From Escherichia phage W22, in the sequence record PV159336: a stretch of DNA of 64,000 bases; one strand, written 5' to 3'. Below are positions 3,894 through 53,150 of this stretch, piece by piece (within the stretch, counting starts at the first letter, position 1; each line of letters starts with the position of its first letter). A program made the position numbers and the translations under genes. The notes beneath the pieces are model-generated. The model was not told where the DNA came from. It did no database searches and saw only the letters and a list, made by a program, of their open reading frames with translations.

Positions 3894-3912
3894 GTAATAC
3901 GGAGGATTACCC

Positions 3913-5892
3913 TTGTTAGAAATTAACACTTCCAAGATTAAGAATACAGTAACGTTTACTGTAGATAAAGACAGTTTAAAAAATACTAAAGACGCAATTA
4001 AAAACCTTAAAACTTTTACAGAATCTATTGAACCATCTTTAAATATGACTAAAATGCGTCGTCAATTTAAAAGTATGGAAGAGTATGCTAAAAGAATAAG
4101 GCAGCAAATGTCAGGTCTTGGCGGCGGTAATCCTCCACCAATCCCACCAACCGGAGGTTCAAGAGGTGGTGGAAAAGGAGGAAGTGGTAGAGGTGGTTCT
4201 GGATCTTCTGGAGGACGTAAAACACCAGAGGAAAGAGCCGCAGAAGCCGCCGCTAAACGTGCAGCACTTGCTAATATGAAGCAAGACGATTTTAGTTTTA
4301 AAGCTATGCCTTTTACAAAAGCAGACAGCAGAATTCTAGAAAAATCTAAAAAGATTGTAGAAGAAACTGTTGAACTTTATCGTAAAGGTGTAATCACTAG
4401 CCAACAAATGAATAATACTTTGGCTAGACAGTTAGAAGAACTACGAAGATCTCATAGAGAGAAGAATGCACAACTTCTTGATGAAGAGAGAGCTAGACGT
4501 AGAATTGCCCGTCTGCAAGAAGCAGAAGATAAAAGAAGACAGCGTATCCGAGAAAGAGAAAGAAAGGATTTCGAACGTCAGCAAAGAAGAGAGAAAGAAG
4601 CAAGACAACGAGATAGACAACGTAAGCTATCTGGTGTAGGTAATGCTGCTATTGCTCTTAACCCTGCTATGTTTGGTGCTGCTCTTTTAGGTGCTGGTTT
4701 ATATCAAGGTATAAGCAAAATAGCTGAAAATATTACAGCGGCGGCAGAACGTATTAATATGGTTAGTAAAGGTGGTCAGAACGTACAGGTAAACCCTAAC
4801 GCAATTTTAACAATGCGTACTTGGGGTGAAATGAACGGTGTAGACTCTGCCAGCATTATTAAAGCCATTGACAATATTAAAGACGTTCGTGAACGTTTAG
4901 GTAATACTGTACTCCACTCTGAATTTGATGAAAAATCAGGTAAATGGAAAGGTGGAGACAGTGGTATTAATGAAATCATGAACCAATTTGGTTGGTCGAA
5001 AGAAGATGTTGCTAAATTCCAGAACAGACCTCTAGACTTTGTTCAAGCACTTGTTAATGAAGGTCAAAAAAGAGGAATGAACTCCGCGCAAATTGGTCGT
5101 TTGATGGAAAACCTTGGTGATGACTTAATGCACTACCAACGTATGTTTTTGGATAACGGTAAAGAGTATATGAAAGTCTTGGATATGTTAAAAAATTCAG
5201 GAGCAACTCTTAACGATGAAAACATCAAAGCAGCACAAGATTTTGTTAAACTAAGAGCAGAAATTAGTGCAGCAGGAGAAGGTTTTACCAATAACTTACT
5301 TGTAGGTTTTATGGATGGTTTAAAATCTGCACCAGATTTTGCAGAAAATATGAAAACTTTCCAAGAAGCTGCTCGTGGTCTTGGTGAAATGTCTGGTAGT
5401 ATTGTAAGTAGCCTTGCAAAAATTGCAAAATATTTCCTTGATTTTTCCAATAAGGTTGGGCCAAAAAACAATACTAAAGAAGCTGTAAGAGATTATTATA
5501 ATGGTACGCAGTATGGGTACGATGCACAGGTTGGTGGTAATCCTTGGGCTTATTGGCCTATTGGAAGAGATCAACATAAACCTGAAAATCAACCTTTAGG
5601 TGACTTTGATAGTAGTTTCTTAACTAGCGCCTTAAATCCAAGTGCTTCTAGTATTGGTTACAACAGACCTGATTTAACAGCATCTATGCTAACACCACGC
5701 CAAGGTGTTCCAGTACCGTTAAGTCTAGAGAATACGGTTGTTATCCCAGACAACGCATTCCAGATTAATGTTATTCCAGATGGTTATGGTTTTAGTAATT
5801 ATCTAGATGCGACAATGAATACCAGTTTTAGTAACTTCTCACAAGGTTTAACTCTTCAGTTAAGCAGTGGACAATCTTCTACTGGTGGTTAA
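3913..5892 (+). CDS. tail tape measure protein
   Basis: 659 aa; Gly-rich segment (GGGNPPPIPPTGGSRGGGKGGSGRGGSGSSGG), long Arg/Glu-rich coiled coil, position after chaperone pair; TTG start 6 nt after GGAGGA. Confidence 0.7.
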   Translation: MLEINTSKIKNTVTFTVDKDSLKNTKDAIKNLKTFTESIEPSLNMTKMRRQFKSMEEYAKRIRQQMSGLGGGNPPPIPPTGGSRGGGKGGSGRGGSGSSGGRKTPEERAAEAAAKRAALANMKQDDFSFKAMPFTKADSRILEKSKKIVEETVELYRKGVITSQQMNNTLARQLEELRRSHREKNAQLLDEERARRRIARLQEAEDKRRQRIRERERKDFERQQRREKEARQRDRQRKLSGVGNAAIALNPAMFGAALLGAGLYQGISKIAENITAAAERINMVSKGGQNVQVNPNAILTMRTWGEMNGVDSASIIKAIDNIKDVRERLGNTVLHSEFDEKSGKWKGGDSGINEIMNQFGWSKEDVAKFQNRPLDFVQALVNEGQKRGMNSAQIGRLMENLGDDLMHYQRMFLDNGKEYMKVLDMLKNSGATLNDENIKAAQDFVKLRAEISAAGEGFTNNLLVGFMDGLKSAPDFAENMKTFQEAARGLGEMSGSIVSSLAKIAKYFLDFSNKVGPKNNTKEAVRDYYNGTQYGYDAQVGGNPWAYWPIGRDQHKPENQPLGDFDSSFLTSALNPSASSIGYNRPDLTASMLTPRQGVPVPLSLENTVVIPDNAFQINVIPDGYGFSNYLDATMNTSFSNFSQGLTLQLSSGQSSTGG

Positions 5893-26414: not shown

Positions 26415-29234
26415 ATGTATCCTATTCCTTTATTTATGTCAACAACATCAGCTTCAGTAGTAACAGCTACATCTATAACCACTTCCTCTATTGGTATTGC
26501 AATAGTTGGTAGTAAAAAGCAACTGACATACACAGTTTCACCGGAAGATGGTGCGTTATTTGATATAGCTTTTTCATCTTCAGATAATACCAAAATGGTT
26601 ATAGATAATAACGGTATGATGGAGTTTGTTGCTGAAGGCGGTTTTGATGCAATAATGACAGCTAAAAATAATTTAGGTGCTGTCTTAACTGATCAGTCTG
26701 GTGGCTATGCTTCAGAATTAAGTGTGTACACTGAAAGTCTGTCTGCTATGGATGCAGGAACTACTCAACAATTGGTTGCTACAATCAGTCCAGAAGGTGC
26801 TAAAGACCTTCCAGACATGGTAATTACGTACACCACAACAGATCCAGAAGTAGCTACTGTAAGCCCTACAGGATTAATAACTGCTCTTAAAGATGGCAGT
26901 TGCCGTATAGGTTGCACTGCAACTTATCAAGGAACAGTGGTGGCCTCTGATAGTTCTTATTTAGGTGTTAATGCTGTTCCTGTTATTTCTAATGTAACAG
27001 CCGTGGCAAACAGCTATGGAGACATTCGTGTTGCTTGGGATGTAGCTGATCCGCTAGATGGTGATACTTATACTGTAGAAGTATTAGATTTAAGTAATAA
27101 CAGTGTCCAGTGGACTACAACAACCACGAATACTTACGCCTACTTTGATATCTCTGACTCTATTCCTCTTTATGGGTTTGCTCCAACATACCTTAAAATT
27201 AGCGTTAAGAGCACCAAAGCAGCAGCCGTTATCTTTAATAACTCAATAGCTACAGATGATTCATTCATTAAAGAAGTTATTGTCTTTGCTGGACAAGATA
27301 ACGTAAATGCACACTTTACAGAACTATCTGGTGCAAATAAAGCAGCAATGAGTAGCACAACAGCCCGTAATGCATATGCTACGCAACGTGGTTTAGCAAA
27401 TGCTGAAGTTCTCCCGTTAAATACAGCTTCTGGATCATCAGCAGCAGATAAATATGCAGATGATAAAGCCGGAACAGGTACACCAGACAACTACTGGTAT
27501 GATCTGGATAACACAGCAGATGGGCCATGCTTAACTAACTTTATCACTAAAGTCACACCTTATGCAAGTAAGGTTAAAGCAATTATTTGGGGACAAGGTG
27601 AAAATGATGCTGTATCAGCATCTTCGACTGTTGCAGGAAGATACAGTAACACTACACGTTACCATGATGCTACGATAGCTATCTTTGATAAGATGCGTAC
27701 AATAGTTCCTGCTTCTCAAGCAAAAATTGTTTGGCAGATCCTAGGACGTTCTTATCTGTATGGTGTAGAAGTTAATGGTGTGGATTGGCAGAAATACAGA
27801 AATGTACAAAGAACCATCTCTACAGCACGTGACGATGTTATCATTGGTTCTTGGGTAGATGGTGCTGAACGTTACAGTGGTTATGTTTATGAAGAAGGTA
27901 TTGATGGTCGTATCCATTATATTTCTTCTGTATACCAGACAGCAGCTACAAAACTTGCTAAATCAGCAGCAGACGGTACAGACCTAACATCAACGTCACC
28001 TGTTTGGGTTGATATGGCTGTTCCAACTGGAGCAACAGCTACTTCCCAACCTAATCAAGATACAATCTTAGCATGGGATGCTCAAGGTTATAGTAAACAC
28101 TACTTCCGTAATATTAACGTCTTAACAGCATCTGTATTAACTGAACAAACGCTTAATACGAACAGTTATACGTTTACCTATGCAGATCAAGTAGAACAAT
28201 ATGGTTTTGCAGCAGGTACTACGATATTTGATGTTGCATATTATGACGAAGCAAATGATGTGTTATCTCCTTTAGTACGTTTTAATGTTAGCGTTACAGC
28301 AGGAAAAGTAGAAGATAAACCTGTCGTGATGGACTATGATTTGACGCAAGAAACTCTCCCATCAGATGTTAAGGTTAATGGTGGAAACTCTTTTGCTCGT
28401 GCTTCTGGAGATACACTTGTAGCCACTAACACCTTGGTTGCTCCGTTGGAGTATGTTGGCACTACCCCTGTAGGTAGACGTGTAACAGCTAACACAGCTA
28501 CACAAATTTTTGTCAACAACGCCTTAACAAGCGCAAGCCCGTGGGTAAAGACCAACTTAACTGTTGCAGCTTCATCTGATAAATCTCCGGCTGGAACTAC
28601 TGCTAATGTATTCAAATTAACTCCGACTACAACCTCTGGTAGTCATATCTTAACTGCAACATATACTAACGCGTACAACATATCTGCCGGACGTAACTGG
28701 TCTGCCTCTGTTTTCTTGAAAGCGAACGGGATTACTAAGGCCAAACTAAGATTAAAAGCAGGGACTGAAGTTAATGAAGGTACTTTTGATTTAGCAGCAG
28801 GTACATTCACAGGAAGTGAAGCTAATATTATATCTATGGGCAACGGTTGGTATCGTGCTATTCTGCATAAAACAGGGATAGCCAAACAGTCCTCCATAAG
28901 TTTTGAAATAATTGCCTTGGATGCTACTGGTGCGGAGATTTTCGCTGGGGATGGTACTAGTAACCTTGCAGTTTGGTTGCCACAGCTTGAAGGTGCTTCT
29001 ACAGGAGAAACATCAAAAGCTGGATCGCCTTATGTCTGCACATATCCTGGAAATTTAGGAGGAGTATCCTTCACTATACCAAGGAACGGACATACTGGTG
29101 TGGATGTTTACTATTCCAACGGAGACGTTGTTCGTGACGTATTCTCTGGTACGGCATCTACTTGGACAATAAACTACTCCAGCTTGTACGATTGGGGATC
29201 AGTCTTTATTACAGGTTTGAAATATTACGACTAA
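26415..29234 (+). CDS. tail fiber protein with SGNH/GDSL-type esterase-like domain
   Basis: 939 aa; blocks FAGQDNVNAHF (GxSN-like block I), IIWGQGENDA (GxND block III), DGRIHY (DxxH block V); flanked by beta-rich regions. Confidence 0.5.
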   Translation: MYPIPLFMSTTSASVVTATSITTSSIGIAIVGSKKQLTYTVSPEDGALFDIAFSSSDNTKMVIDNNGMMEFVAEGGFDAIMTAKNNLGAVLTDQSGGYASELSVYTESLSAMDAGTTQQLVATISPEGAKDLPDMVITYTTTDPEVATVSPTGLITALKDGSCRIGCTATYQGTVVASDSSYLGVNAVPVISNVTAVANSYGDIRVAWDVADPLDGDTYTVEVLDLSNNSVQWTTTTTNTYAYFDISDSIPLYGFAPTYLKISVKSTKAAAVIFNNSIATDDSFIKEVIVFAGQDNVNAHFTELSGANKAAMSSTTARNAYATQRGLANAEVLPLNTASGSSAADKYADDKAGTGTPDNYWYDLDNTADGPCLTNFITKVTPYASKVKAIIWGQGENDAVSASSTVAGRYSNTTRYHDATIAIFDKMRTIVPASQAKIVWQILGRSYLYGVEVNGVDWQKYRNVQRTISTARDDVIIGSWVDGAERYSGYVYEEGIDGRIHYISSVYQTAATKLAKSAADGTDLTSTSPVWVDMAVPTGATATSQPNQDTILAWDAQGYSKHYFRNINVLTASVLTEQTLNTNSYTFTYADQVEQYGFAAGTTIFDVAYYDEANDVLSPLVRFNVSVTAGKVEDKPVVMDYDLTQETLPSDVKVNGGNSFARASGDTLVATNTLVAPLEYVGTTPVGRRVTANTATQIFVNNALTSASPWVKTNLTVAASSDKSPAGTTANVFKLTPTTTSGSHILTATYTNAYNISAGRNWSASVFLKANGITKAKLRLKAGTEVNEGTFDLAAGTFTGSEANIISMGNGWYRAILHKTGIAKQSSISFEIIALDATGAEIFAGDGTSNLAVWLPQLEGASTGETSKAGSPYVCTYPGNLGGVSFTIPRNGHTGVDVYYSNGDVVRDVFSGTASTWTINYSSLYDWGSVFITGLKYYD

Positions 29235-29237
29235 TAA

Positions 29238-29266
29238 AAAAGGAGCCATTAGGCTCCTTTTCTTTT
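29238..29266. terminator. bidirectional terminator between convergent late (+) and early (-) modules
   Basis: AAAAAGGAGCC-ATTA-GGCTCCTTTTCTTTT hairpin with A-run upstream and T-run downstream. Confidence 0.6.
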
Positions 29267-29269
29267 ATC

Positions 29270-29701
29270 TTAATCAGTGAAAATTACGCTCACATCTTCT
29301 TTAGAGAAGAGTTTATGATCTTCGCCTTTTGTCTCAAGAGTTTCATACAGGTTAAGAAGTTCTGAAACATCTTTCTCTACCAGTTTCTTCAATGTTGCAA
29401 TTTTCTGTTTGCGACTCTTAATACGTTCAGCTACAACCTTACGTTGGTATCCAGCAGTACGATAACCTGAGAAAGTTACACCAGTAAGACTTGCAGTTAC
29501 AGGATCGTAGTGACGTTCAATCTGAAATTTATTAAAAGGTACAGCGTCATCACGAATAATCTTACCGCCATTACTTACTTGACGAAGACCAGTAACTTGT
29601 TCCAGTCGTGCCATAGAAATCTTTGGAGACAGACCAGAGTCCAAATTCATACCGTTGTTAATCAGTGCTTTCAGGGTGATTTTGCTGTTCATTGTACTCA
29701 T
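29270..29701 (-). CDS. hypothetical protein linked to DNA methyltransferase
   Basis: 143 aa; own strong RBS (GGAGGA) embedded in 3' end of MTase gene, 44-nt overlap. Confidence 0.45.
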   Translation of the reverse strand: MSTMNSKITLKALINNGMNLDSGLSPKISMARLEQVTGLRQVSNGGKIIRDDAVPFNKFQIERHYDPVTASLTGVTFSGYRTAGYQRKVVAERIKSRKQKIATLKKLVEKDVSELLNLYETLETKGEDHKLFSKEDVSVIFTD

Positions 29702-30389
29702 TTAGTCGTTCCTCCGCTTGCTTAAAAATATTTACATCGGCTTCACAGCCTAAGTATTCTCTACCTGTTAAAAGTGCCGCAACTTGTGTTGTTGCACTTC
29801 CAGAGAAGAAGTCTAAGACTACATCTCCTTCGTTGGTATGTATATTAATAAGGTCACAAAACAAAGTCAAGTGTTTTTGTGTTGGATGAAAACGATCTGC
29901 TCCTTGATAGATAGGATACTCAAACACACCCTTATGGTAGGAAGCATTGAAGGTTGGCTTCGAACCTTTAACACAAACAATAGCCATCTCTTTAGCGTTA
30001 CTAAGGTAGTTAACACCACTGTTGATGGGTACAGGGTTTGTTTTAATCCATTCAATAGTACGGAACATACGAAAACCAAGCGGTTCAAGGATTTCACGTA
30101 GCTCCTGGATCTTCCAGATATCATACCAAACTATGCAAGTACCACCTTTTCTAAGCACCCTATAGGCTTCTTTGAATACTTCTTTAAAGTAAGGAATATC
30201 TACAACGTCCCAGTCACCAAAGTTGTAAGATACACGGAATCTATCCGTATCTTTTCCAGTAGGCTCTCCAGATTGAAAATTTGTGTCACGAGAAATAGCA
30301 TATGGTGGGTCAGTAAGAATCAAATCTACACTATTGCTTTCGAGGGTTTGCAGGTAGTTTAATGCAGTGTTGTTTACAAATTCGCTCAT
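29658..30389 (-). CDS. DNA methyltransferase (beta-class N6-adenine/N4-cytosine, DPPY type)
   Basis: Catalytic motif LILTDPPYA near N-terminus and AdoMet-binding motif FFSGSATT near C-terminus (order IV then I = beta class). Confidence 0.75.
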   Translation of the reverse strand: MSEFVNNTALNYLQTLESNSVDLILTDPPYAISRDTNFQSGEPTGKDTDRFRVSYNFGDWDVVDIPYFKEVFKEAYRVLRKGGTCIVWYDIWKIQELREILEPLGFRMFRTIEWIKTNPVPINSGVNYLSNAKEMAIVCVKGSKPTFNASYHKGVFEYPIYQGADRFHPTQKHLTLFCDLINIHTNEGDVVLDFFSGSATTQVAALLTGREYLGCEADVNIFKQAEERLNEYNEQQNHPESTD

Positions 30390-30405
30390 TATATCTCCTT
30401 CAAAG

Positions 30406-30430
30406 AAAAGGAGCCGTTAGGCTCCTTATA
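30406..30430 (-). terminator. rho-independent terminator after ssDNA-binding protein gene
   Basis: AAAAGGAGCC-GTTA-GGCTCCTT; near-identical stem to hairpin at 29241-29258. Confidence 0.5.
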
Positions 30431-30449
30431 TTCACACAATATTTAACTA

Positions 30450-31397
30450 TTAGAAACAGTGCAGGAAGTTTCGACCATATTGCAAACCAATAGGAGCAAA
30501 CGGGATATCATCATCGAAATCTTGAACAACAGGTTCTGGTTCTTTCGGTGCTGGCTCTTTCTTCTCTACTTTTTTAGTTTCTTTCTTAACATCTTGTACT
30601 GGAGTAGACATTCCACGGATAGCAGCAGCTACTTTATCAGACAAAGCAAGAACTTCACGAGCAGCTTCAATAATCTCTTCTGCCGTTACAGTTTTACCTG
30701 TATGATCACGACAAGCGTTAAGAATTGCGTGTCCAACTGAAGCACCAAGATCATAGTCAGTCACATCAACACCACGATCTTTAGCAATTTCAGCTTTCAG
30801 AGTAACAGTTGCAGATTGTACCACACCAGCCAAATCGAAAGCATCACCTTTCACACCAGCACGTAGAAGCTCCAGAGCGCCGTTTACAGCGTGTCCTGTT
30901 TCAATCCCTACGGTATCACGTTTTTTGTAGTTAGGCTTGTTACCGTCATTATTAGATGGCTTATTTCCACCTTTTGAAGAGGATTGCGCTTGCTGAACAC
31001 CTTCTGTTGAAAGAATAGTGATTTTACCTTTAGAGGAGTTGTAGTATGTTTTACCATTCCATTCGGAAGGTTTAACATCCATAGTTAGTTCTACGCCTTT
31101 TTCGATAGTAACCCACTTATCACCATCTTTAACTTGCAGGTTTTCATGTTCTGGGTGCAGTTTAACTTCACCTAGGCTAACCCAAACACCTTTATCATCA
31201 GCACCAGCACCTTTCTCTTTAATAAGCAGAGATGCTTTGTGAGTTGATTCAATTTTCTTATCTGGCTGACCTGCAACCTTAATATAAGAGACTTTCATTT
31301 CATCAAACTTATCTAGCTTGACATATTCGACAATACCTTCAGCCCAGAATGCTTCTTTTTTAGTACGACGGTCGATTTCAGAATTAATTACTGGCAT
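30450..31397 (-). CDS. putative ssDNA-binding protein with SSB-like acidic DDDIPF motif
   Basis: 315 aa; beta-rich N-terminal domain, helical middle domain, C-terminal FDDDIPF followed by 15 extra residues (APIGLQYGRNFLHCF). Confidence 0.4.
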   Translation of the reverse strand: MPVINSEIDRRTKKEAFWAEGIVEYVKLDKFDEMKVSYIKVAGQPDKKIESTHKASLLIKEKGAGADDKGVWVSLGEVKLHPEHENLQVKDGDKWVTIEKGVELTMDVKPSEWNGKTYYNSSKGKITILSTEGVQQAQSSSKGGNKPSNNDGNKPNYKKRDTVGIETGHAVNGALELLRAGVKGDAFDLAGVVQSATVTLKAEIAKDRGVDVTDYDLGASVGHAILNACRDHTGKTVTAEEIIEAAREVLALSDKVAAAIRGMSTPVQDVKKETKKVEKKEPAPKEPEPVVQDFDDDIPFAPIGLQYGRNFLHCF

Positions 31398-31812: not shown

Positions 31813-31855
31813 TCAAGTCCTCATAATAACACATAATTGTAAGGTTTGTCAACAC

Positions 31856-32470
31856 TTAAATCTTAAATTCTTCGTTGTTAAATGAATCCAGTGTACGTAC
31901 TTCTGGTTCTTTGGGAATGAAAACGTCTTTTACAAAGCGGAACATAGGGAAACGTTCTGCCATTTTACGGACGTGTGCTTCTTTACCTGTGTATCGGTGA
32001 TTAATAGTGCAAATATTAGTTTTCAATGCAAATTCAAAATCTGGATGATATACATAATTTTGACCATCCCAGTAACACAGGCAAATAGCTACGTCAAAGT
32101 TCCATACGATTTCACTGCGTACACCTTCTTCCATGATCATAAAGTTAAACTTAAGGTCTTTATAGTATGCTTCAAATACCCATTTCAAATGTGGTAGTTC
32201 GGCATAAGTGTGTTCTGTTTGCTTAGTAAGTTGTTTAACATTACGTGCACCAACACCCAACATCAAAAATTTCTCTACTAGCACGAGTGTATTGTGGTTA
32301 GGCATACGCAAGTAAATGTCAATGTTTTGTGCAGGTTTCTCTAATCGCCAATCACGTACAGCGCCGCCAGCTACAATTGCAAACGGATCTACCAGTTGGC
32401 ACATACGTAATACTTCTAAAGCGCGTACTTTTTGATCTTCAATATTCATATTTTCTCCTATCGTGTCCAC
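31856..32470 (-). CDS. minimal nucleotidyltransferase (CCA-adding/poly(A) polymerase head-domain-like)
   Basis: Motif FAIVAGGAVRDWRLEKPAQNIDIYL matches GGxVRD...DxD of class II tRNA nucleotidyltransferase head domain; only 204 aa. Confidence 0.4.
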   Translation of the reverse strand: MDTIGENMNIEDQKVRALEVLRMCQLVDPFAIVAGGAVRDWRLEKPAQNIDIYLRMPNHNTLVLVEKFLMLGVGARNVKQLTKQTEHTYAELPHLKWVFEAYYKDLKFNFMIMEEGVRSEIVWNFDVAICLCYWDGQNYVYHPDFEFALKTNICTINHRYTGKEAHVRKMAERFPMFRFVKDVFIPKEPEVRTLDSFNNEEFKI

Positions 32471-33054
32471 TCTTTATGTTGTTCTACATGCTCAAGCATT
32501 TCATTATACAGTGCTTTAAGATGTGGAACAACTCTTTCATCTTCAGTTTCAAAGAATTTTGTAAGCTGTTCTGCTTTAGCTTTCAACCAGCAAAGATGCG
32601 CTTCAATTTCAGTATTAAAACGCCCCAGCGTTTTCATGCGACCGTCTACTTTTATATTGGCTTTGTATTTATTACGATCTTTTTCGTAACTACAGCCTAC
32701 CATAGTTCCATGAGATCTTTTACTTACTCTATAAGCTAAGAACTTATTAAGATCTCCTGTTACTAAAAGACAGGTATCGGGAGAGTAAACCCTCCCTCCT
32801 ATAATATCTTTATCAAGTTCTAAGTTTTCCCAGTTTTCCCAAGTTTGCAACCAGGAGTAGAAATTTGAGAACAGTTTCCATTCTTCACAAACCGTCACCC
32901 CCTTATAACAAGGATCACGTTCTTGTTGGCAAGGGGAGTAACACCTCCCCAACATAGCCATCCATTTCATATAATGCGGCGTTAGTTTCTTACTACCAGG
33001 TAGTGTACTCTCGCCTTCCAAATCATTAATACCTTCACCATATACGGTAAGCAT
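32458..33054 (-). CDS. AP2-domain / HNH-type homing endonuclease-like protein
   Basis: N-terminal Cys-rich region (YKGVTVCEEWKLFSNFYSW) and AP2-like segment (KYKANIKVDGRMKTLGRFNTEIEAHLCWLKA). Confidence 0.45.
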   Translation of the reverse strand: MLTVYGEGINDLEGESTLPGSKKLTPHYMKWMAMLGRCYSPCQQERDPCYKGVTVCEEWKLFSNFYSWLQTWENWENLELDKDIIGGRVYSPDTCLLVTGDLNKFLAYRVSKRSHGTMVGCSYEKDRNKYKANIKVDGRMKTLGRFNTEIEAHLCWLKAKAEQLTKFFETEDERVVPHLKALYNEMLEHVEQHKEWTR

Positions 33055-53126: not shown

Positions 53127-53150
53127 AAAGGAGGCTTTCGCCTCCTTTTA
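53127..53150 (-). terminator. rho-independent terminator after AAA ATPase gene
   Basis: AAAGGAGGC-TTTC-GCCTCCTTT hairpin then TTTATTTAT on - strand. Confidence 0.5.

Follow-up and report, generated by a model that had tools for sequence, protein, structure and literature searches.

A DNA methyltransferase and its overlapping partner gene between near-identical predicted terminators at the early/late junction of phi92-like coliphages

Introduction

Between positions 29,238 and 30,430 of a 64,000-nucleotide stretch of Escherichia phage W22 (record PV159336; the whole 64-kb stretch is called the window below), a DNA methyltransferase gene and an overlapping gene for a 143-residue protein lie between two hairpins of almost the same sequence, an arrangement that an initial annotation had read as an acquired moron. 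Several described systems come close to it. The moron concept of Hendrix and Juhala is said to stem from the lambdoid phages HK97 and HK022. Methyltransferases with small partners are known from the overlapping dcm and vsr genes, from the controller (C) proteins of restriction-modification systems, and from CcrM with its methylation-reading factor GcrA. For the orphan beta-class methyltransferases of phages, we know of no description of a conserved, coupled downstream partner. In T4-type phages, repeated promoter/stem-loop elements (PeSLs) bound indels and recombine (Arbiol et al., 2010, PMC2839356; Comeau et al., 2014, PMC4122927). Each element is a composite of a sigma70 promoter, a stem-loop and a Shine-Dalgarno sequence; a genome has about 50 of them, gathered in hyperplastic regions (PMC2839356; PMC4122927).

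We consider it likely that the cassette is an old two-gene module at the early/late junction that is fixed in its genus, is flanked by hairpins derived from one ancestral terminator, is expressed by read-through, and carries a partner protein linked to the methyltransferase. The insertion itself is ordinary. What is new here is the family of methyltransferase-linked partner proteins, together with the finding that cargo at this junction is repeatedly enclosed by two copies of one terminator.

The cassette and its hairpins

Judged by nucleotide identity, the window is that of a Justusliebigvirus, a phi92-like coliphage and myovirus. With Escherichia phage PHB05 (Justusliebigvirus) the region shares 98.8% identity, and with about 50 further Justusliebigvirus (phi92-like) genomes 92-98%. 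The host phage is virulent, and phi92-like phages are lytic. The phi92 counterparts of the genes at the locus are a gp153-like tail gene, gp154 (the partner), gp155 (the methyltransferase) and gp156, which resembles a single-stranded DNA-binding protein (SSB). The features are as follows.

26415-29234, plus strand: tail protein of 939 amino acids with a Big_2 domain, last gene of the late module, converging on the cassette (open reading frame, Pfam/PHROG, annotations)
29239-29260, both strands: H1, predicted bidirectional intrinsic terminator, AAAGGAGCC-ATTA-GGCTCCTTT (sequence, fold, terminator scan)
29270-29701, minus strand: 143-residue partner, phi92 gp154, phrog_20244 (open reading frame, PHROG, relatives, AlphaFold2 model)
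29658-30389, minus strand: beta-class N6/N4 DNA methyltransferase, phi92 gp155, 243 amino acids (open reading frame, Pfam, PHROG, motifs)
30395-30400, minus strand: Shine-Dalgarno sequence AAGGAG of the methyltransferase, directly after the U-tract of H2 (sequence, phi92 ribosome-binding site annotation)
30407-30427, minus strand: H2, predicted terminator or attenuator, AAGGAGCC-TAAC-GGCTCC followed by UUUUCUUUG (sequence, fold, terminator scan)
30450-31397, minus strand: SSB-like gene, phi92 gp156, which closes the early/replication operon and precedes H2 (open reading frame, PHROG)

The initial annotation had placed the cassette exactly where convergent late and early modules meet, with both genes between near-identical hairpins, and this holds: both hairpins and both reading frames are present, and the open reading frames, PHROG matches and annotations agree on a tail gene on the plus strand facing SSB-like and replication genes on the minus strand. 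Its coordinates are right for H2, whereas its end of H1, 29259, is one base short. With the flanking A- and T-tracts, H1 spans approximately 29232-29267, between the stop codons of the tail gene and of the 143-residue reading frame. H2, which reads AAAGGAGCC-GTTA-GGCTCCTT on the plus strand, lies between the SSB-like stop and the methyltransferase start. Taken as a direct repeat of 27 nt, the two are identical at 24 positions and stand 1168 nt apart. The pattern AAGGAGCC-N4-GGCTCCTT occurs exactly twice in the window and in none of 100 shuffles, and among about 10 terminator-like perfect hairpins of the window only H1 and H2 share this stem.

Predicted folding energies of -13.6 to -19.6 kcal/mol, with z scores from -2.5 to -6, indicate that both hairpins are stable. 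H1 combines a G+C-rich stem-loop with a U-tract on either strand (-15.7 and -19.6 kcal/mol), and H2 does so on the minus strand only, where UUUUCUUUG runs directly into the AAGGAG ribosome-binding site. The terminator scan called H1 on the plus strand and H2 on the minus strand. The minus-strand U-tract of H1, which with its stem (-19.6 kcal/mol, z -6) predicts a terminator at the downstream end of the cassette, was read directly from the sequence. The record of phage Paula has terminators annotated at both hairpins, and a search of Rfam gave only sub-threshold matches to terminator-like sRNAs.

At 53127-53148 lies a variant of this hairpin, AAAGGAGGC-GAAA-GCCTCCTTT, which differs by two changes in the stem and is also terminator-like on the minus strand.

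Empty junctions in related phages

In Phapecoctavirus ESCO5, the SSB-like and tail genes are direct convergent neighbors, with a single hairpin, AAAGGAGCC-ATTT-GGCTCCTTT, between their stop codons. The same empty junction is found in the outgroup Salmonella phage PVP-SE1 (Seunavirus, Vequintavirinae), where the hairpin is AAAGGAGCC-GAAA-GGCTCCTTT and is annotated as a bidirectional terminator. None of the 69 Phapecoctavirus records that match the ESCO5 junction carries the cassette or its methyltransferase; some have a small insert or an endonuclease gene instead. The cassette thus lies between genes that are adjacent in ESCO5 and PVP-SE1, and the one hairpin of the same stem at the empty junctions suggests that it is an insertion bracketed by a duplicated ancestral bidirectional terminator. 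The flanks of H1 are ancestral on both sides, with ATAAAAGAAAA on one side and the T-tract and tail-gene end on the other. By this comparison, H1 is orthologous to the lone terminator of the ESCO5 and PVP-SE1 junctions, which makes H2 the extra copy.

The reverse course of events would be that the cassette was ancestral to the group and was lost in Phapecoctavirus and in PVP-SE1-like phages by recombination between the hairpin repeats. Two repeats as similar and as closely spaced as H1 and H2 are a plausible substrate for such a deletion, and the empty sites hold exactly the one same-stem hairpin that it would leave behind. We nevertheless regard this course as unlikely. At least two independent losses are needed, one of them in an outgroup subfamily, and H1 retains both ancestral flanks. 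The lineages that bear the cassette also cluster by the identity of their nucleotidyltransferase (NT158), which in the cassette-bearing metagenomic relatives is 52-54% identical to that of the window, against 36% in ESCO5. Finally, the methyltransferase-partner pair is seen moving between unrelated phages (see below).

It is likewise improbable, in our estimate, that H1 and H2 resemble each other by coincidence or convergence on a popular, efficient terminator stem, neither sharing an origin nor having played a part in acquisition of the cassette. A scan of IMG/VR found the GGAGCC stem in at least 120 stretches and the near-identity of the two hairpins is confined to some 20-27 nt, both of which are in keeping with convergence. 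Yet no other terminator-like hairpin of the window has this stem, two other taxa have it in the terminator that resides at their orthologous empty site, and the same doubling recurs around different cargo in another lineage (L035 and L037; L numbers are our labels for the sequences compared). The presence of the stem at the empty site in two other taxa makes duplication of an ancestral terminator the better reading.

Some observations weigh against a duplicated terminator, or limit what can be said of it. The GGAGCC stem is a common terminator stem in viral contigs, which may leave convergence of H2 conceivable. Two metagenomic relatives, L006 and L008, enclose the same cassette with two terminators that are unlike each other, so that the cassette does not depend on the likeness of H1 and H2. 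Direct and inverted duplication are indistinguishable, as the element is a palindrome with a loop that is flipped in some strains. Terminator function, read-through and the promoter at 31852, to which we return below, are consensus-level predictions.

Age and fixation of the cassette

The cassette is present in all of about 55 records of the genus, with the same flanks, with both proteins 95-99% identical, and without presence/absence polymorphism. In the metagenomic relatives L006-L010, the pair occupies the same junction with considerably more diverged proteins (gp154 55-66% and methyltransferase 78-86% identical to those of the window). The G+C content of the cassette, 0.385-0.40, is not deviant from that of its surroundings (0.35-0.44). 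Fixation throughout the genus, divergent carriers and ordinary composition together argue for an old insertion rather than a recent moron. The comparison of relatives by which, according to the initial annotation, acquisition could be refuted gives a mixed picture: every close relative has the cassette between the same flanks, and the distant carriers L006 and L008 have two unlike terminators.

The hairpins differ in how they vary. H2 and both stems are unchanged in 13 sequences of the genus (the window and 12 relatives). A run of 34 nt comprising hairpin, U-tract and Shine-Dalgarno sequence is identical between the window and L007, a relative at 78% identity, although the methyltransferase coding sequence is only 71% identical over its first 300 nt, suggesting that H2 is under strong constraint. 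The loop of H1, by contrast, is reverse-complemented between otherwise identical genomes of the genus (TAAT/ATTA and TATT/AATA in the sense of the methyltransferase; window 29248-29251, L011 4139-4142, L012 4139-4142, L002 2316-2319), and no such flip is seen in the H2 loop of the 13 sequences. We take the flips to be small inversions at the palindrome, which mark DNA-level events at this place.

A third lineage and exchange at the junction

A third lineage (L035, L037, L162 and L164, contigs of about 147 kb from IMG/VR and JGI), whose SSB is 61% identical to that of the window, has different cargo at the junction. After the SSB stop come a hairpin, GGAGCC-GAAA-GGCTCC with UUUUCUUUUG, and the sigma70-like hexamers TTGACG-17-TAATAT, which are kept across a divergent spacer. 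A ribosome-binding site, a solo gp154 homolog of 139 amino acids, a second hairpin, AAAGAAAAGGAGCC-TTTC-GGCTCC (stem GGAGCC), and the tail gene follow. No methyltransferase is found within 2.5 kb of the gp154 homolog. By its sequence elements, this lineage has every part of a moron, again between two copies of the hairpin. The homolog is 38% identical to the partner in the window, and inside the cassette-bearing clade gp154 diverges approximately as fast as SSB; a value of 38% next to 61% for SSB makes independent acquisition likelier than shared descent.

Further variation is seen at the junction. Two alternative C-terminal alleles of the tail protein start exactly at the T-tract of H1 (window 28300-29261; L002 2302-2330), giving proteins of 939 amino acids in the window, Paula and alia, and of 628 amino acids in ECGD1 and VEcB. 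In about half of the Phapecoctavirus records, homology to ESCO5 breaks off precisely at the hairpin. Genes for HNH endonucleases lie at the junction in L036 (PF13392, 1.9e-13), L007 and phage Mt1B1_P17; the coordinates of these HNH/homing endonucleases are L036 1868-2374, L007 270-700 and L004 5992-6399. From the loop flips, the allele boundaries and the HNH insertions, the hairpin appears to be a place of DNA exchange. The window also has an HNH reading frame of its own at 32458-33054, 2 kb upstream, which is missing from phage Paula.

Exchange at the hairpin raises the question of whether the cassette is still mobile, with H1 and H2 as active, PeSL-like recombination sites for excision, circularization and re-insertion during co-infection. 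Two different cargoes between the same hairpin pair in two lineages, loop flips as DNA-level events at H1, allele boundaries that coincide with the hairpin, and the precedent of the PeSLs (PMC2839356) all fit such a model. The window has only two copies of the hairpin in 64 kb, neither with a promoter, the shared homology extends over only some 20-27 nt, and a mobile cassette would not be expected to lack presence/absence polymorphism among about 55 genomes of the genus. Ongoing mobility is thus possible but, we think, doubtful, and we prefer an old insertion between two copies of an ancestral terminator.

Comparison with morons and PeSLs

An old insertion of this kind shares with a moron that it is extra DNA between genes adjacent in relatives and that it has a predicted downstream terminator of its own, H1; the L037 lineage has the full terminator-promoter-gene-terminator layout at the same junction. 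It differs in having neither a promoter nor a deviant composition, and in being fixed throughout the genus instead of sporadic. Expression from a prophage is not at issue in a virulent host phage. The label of acquired moron is therefore right as far as extra DNA relative to other phages and movement of the pair as a unit in unrelated contigs are concerned, and does not fit the missing promoter, the ordinary G+C content, the old and fixed state or the virulent phage.

Among mechanistic precedents the PeSLs come closest. The likeness to them lies in short repeated stem-loop terminators that bound indels and replacements between relatives, as they do at the cassette junction, and that insulate early from late virion genes. 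Neither hairpin of the window is a composite with a promoter, though, and instead of many copies there are two exact ones and a single variant with two mismatches. With no promoter and two copies in 64 kb, H1 and H2 are not PeSLs; by analogy, they may work like them. The methyltransferase-partner module in other phages has PeSL-like composites upstream.

Expression of the cassette

From the H2 stem to the ATG of the methyltransferase there are 17 nt, filled by the U-tract and the Shine-Dalgarno sequence, and a promoter scan found no promoter-like site between H2 and the methyltransferase start. Because H2 abuts the ribosome-binding site, the cassette, unlike a moron, appears to have no promoter of its own. 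The best promoter-like site in the neighborhood is on the far side of the early genes:

31823-31852, minus strand: predicted sigma70-like promoter, TTGACA-18-TATTAT with upstream TG, 11/12 matches to consensus, preceding gp157-gp156 (consensus match)

Together, these elements suggest a model for transcription of the locus. H2 would end or attenuate the early gp157-SSB transcript immediately before the methyltransferase ribosome-binding site, and H1 would serve both strands, terminating the transcript of the tail gene on one and that of the cassette on the other. Since the cassette lacks a promoter, read-through of H2 from the early operon, with transcripts that would come from the predicted promoter at 31823-31852, is the most likely route of expression and would give a low level of methyltransferase. 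The partner gene lies in the +1 frame and overlaps the 3' end of the methyltransferase gene by 44 nt; its translation would be coupled to that of the methyltransferase. We rejected a programmed frameshift that fuses the two proteins, given the +1 frame, the GGAGG ribosome-binding site of gp154 itself, and the failure to find a slippery site.

The methyltransferase

The methyltransferase matches PF01555 over profile positions 1-221 of 221 (1.9e-30; 106.9 bits, cut-off 26.7). The order of its motifs, DPPY at residues 27-30 and an FxGxG-type S-adenosylmethionine (AdoMet) motif near the C-terminus, is that of the beta class. The nearest solved structure is M1.HpyAVI of H. pylori, deposited as 'DpnA' (5hek/5hfj), which aligns over the full length (5hek, E 2e-28), with DFFSGSATT opposite DPFMGSGTT. 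Outside the genus, the next-best match in the phage collection is less than 40% identical. The enzyme presumably methylates phage DNA at a short motif.

In size, in full-length alignment and in the succession of DPPY and FxGxG, gp155 resembles the orphan beta-class methyltransferases (PF01555; M1.HpyAVI), and like orphan methyltransferases of phages it has no cognate nuclease gene. Unlike them, it is coupled to a conserved downstream partner.

The partner protein

The partner, gp154, has no match in Pfam, in NCBIfam, in the PADLOC models or among PDB sequences. An exhaustive profile-free search recovered about 29 representative relatives, all of 125-143 amino acids, with G23, S25, R50, D52, F77 and G79 invariant. 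Searches of plasmids and of 5,426 E. coli genomes, and a pattern-limited scan of 185,579 species genomes, found no relative of gp154 or of the cassette; as far as these searches reach, the family is restricted to phages. The alignment of the full family (A1) has no conserved stretch for locus scans, which used the sub-alignments A3 and A4. Matches to gp154 in several stretches of P0019 (1452 amino acids, with Listeria-Bacteroides repeats) and in P0032 were judged to be noise driven by repeats.

The strongest evidence on the partner is its gene neighborhood. Of 12 independent contexts that show the upstream DNA, 10 have a DNA methyltransferase directly upstream of the partner, from two unrelated families. 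In seven (the Justusliebigvirus clade, L013, L030, L038, L018/19, L167 and L168-170), it is a DPPY methyltransferase of PF01555 that adjoins and usually overlaps the partner gene. In three (L014, L016/17 and L015), it is a very small NPPF-type enzyme of 178-190 amino acids that matches phrog_799 at 1e-27 to 1e-32 and Pfam Eco57I just below threshold. The DPPY methyltransferases of unrelated phages (L013, L030, L038, L167 and L168) are 64-66% identical to that of the window and their partners 35-44%, and the occurrence of both together at such identities suggests that the pair travels as a unit. At 1413-1598 of L168, and also in L169 and L170, a reading frame weakly similar to NPPF-type methyltransferases lies just upstream of the DPPY methyltransferase-gp154 pair. 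By sequence, both methyltransferase types may thus stand in tandem before one partner gene.

In the AlphaFold2 model of gp154 (pLDDT 89), the N-terminal part weakly resembles a winged helix and residues 83-125 form a long helix; its fold matches are DNA-binding winged helices and are weak. The isoelectric point is 9.55. From the neighborhood and the weak fold match, gp154 would most likely bind nucleic acid as a dimer and act together with the methyltransferase, by regulating it, by targeting it or by reading its mark. More broadly, and tentatively, the gp154 family is possibly an undescribed dedicated partner of phage DNA methyltransferases of at least two families, a dimeric nucleic-acid binder that reads the mark, directs the enzyme or tunes expression, and whose modules would have been captured repeatedly at the terminator hairpin of the rV5/phi92-type early/late junction, as a landing pad for recombination.

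Several findings speak against so close a partnership or narrow the choice of roles. Two of the 12 contexts, Pseudoalteromonas phage J2-1 and the L035 lineage, have solo copies without an adjacent methyltransferase. A Foldseek search of the model against the PDB gave nothing significant, and residues 38-58, where a recognition helix would be expected, are modeled as coil with low confidence. Because the methyltransferase aligns over its full length with M1.HpyAVI, which acts alone, it probably needs no specificity subunit, which weakens that role for gp154. The BASEL study found phi92-like phages exceptionally susceptible to the restriction systems tested (PMC8594841), and broad protection against restriction is therefore not evident. 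Of the roles that the initial annotation had offered for the partner (specificity, regulation, anti-restriction), the connection with the methyltransferase is strongly supported by gene neighborhood, specificity has become less probable, and general anti-restriction finds no support in the reported susceptibility.

The described pairs of a methyltransferase and a small partner (dcm-vsr, C proteins, CcrM-GcrA) share with the cassette a small gene that is linked to or overlaps the methyltransferase gene, and gp154 too probably binds DNA. It has no sequence or family match to Vsr, Xre-type C proteins or GcrA, and searches of Pfam and NCBIfam with gp154 and 30 family members gave no match to a helix-turn-helix family such as would mark an Xre-type C protein. 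It also lies downstream of the methyltransferase gene, unlike most C proteins, and its family accompanies two unrelated methyltransferase families.

The overlap of the two genes, as in many restriction-modification operons, and a weak match in BFVD to an IceA1-like protein (E 0.085) could be taken to mean that the partner is a small nuclease, and the pair a phage-borne restriction-modification or addiction module. We hold this to be very unlikely. The conserved residues include no PD-(D/E)xK, HNH or GIY-YIG signature, the searches of Pfam, NCBIfam, the PADLOC models and PDB sequences gave no match, and the fold matches are DNA-binding winged helices. Solo copies without a methyltransferase exist, which would not be tolerable for an unprotected nuclease; together with the missing catalytic signature, they make a nuclease role unlikely.

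Significance

Orphan methyltransferases are common in phages and often of unclear purpose, and in phi92-like phages no protection from common restriction systems is apparent. A conserved, phage-only partner that follows two methyltransferase families provides a concrete handle on this purpose, as the phage is testable with and without it. The repeated doubling of a terminator around different cargo at the same junction suggests a simple model, open to testing, for the uptake of accessory genes by large virulent phages, in which cargo would be gained without disturbing either early or late transcription.

Further observations

The C-terminus of gp156 (30450-30497, minus strand) has the classic acidic tip DFDDDIPF followed by 15 extra residues (APIGLQYGRNFLHCF). 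The extension past IPF is also present in Mt1B1_P17 and PVP-SE1; ESCO5, L006, L008 and L035 stop at IPF. An internal instead of a terminal IPF tip is unusual for an SSB.

The records of 'Campylobacter phage' A150 (L029, MG065639.1, flagged UNVERIFIED), A145, C3 and A110a are Justusliebigvirus genomes nearly identical to the coliphages, and are probably mislabeled or contaminants.

In L110 (IMGVR_UViG_2974746064_000001), an unrelated viral contig of 49.8 kb, two identical AAGGAGCC-GAAA-GGCTCCTT hairpins, 3 kb apart at 889-908 and 3905-3924, enclose a recombination module of an SSB ending in DDDIPF, an ERF protein and a PDDEXK-like protein.

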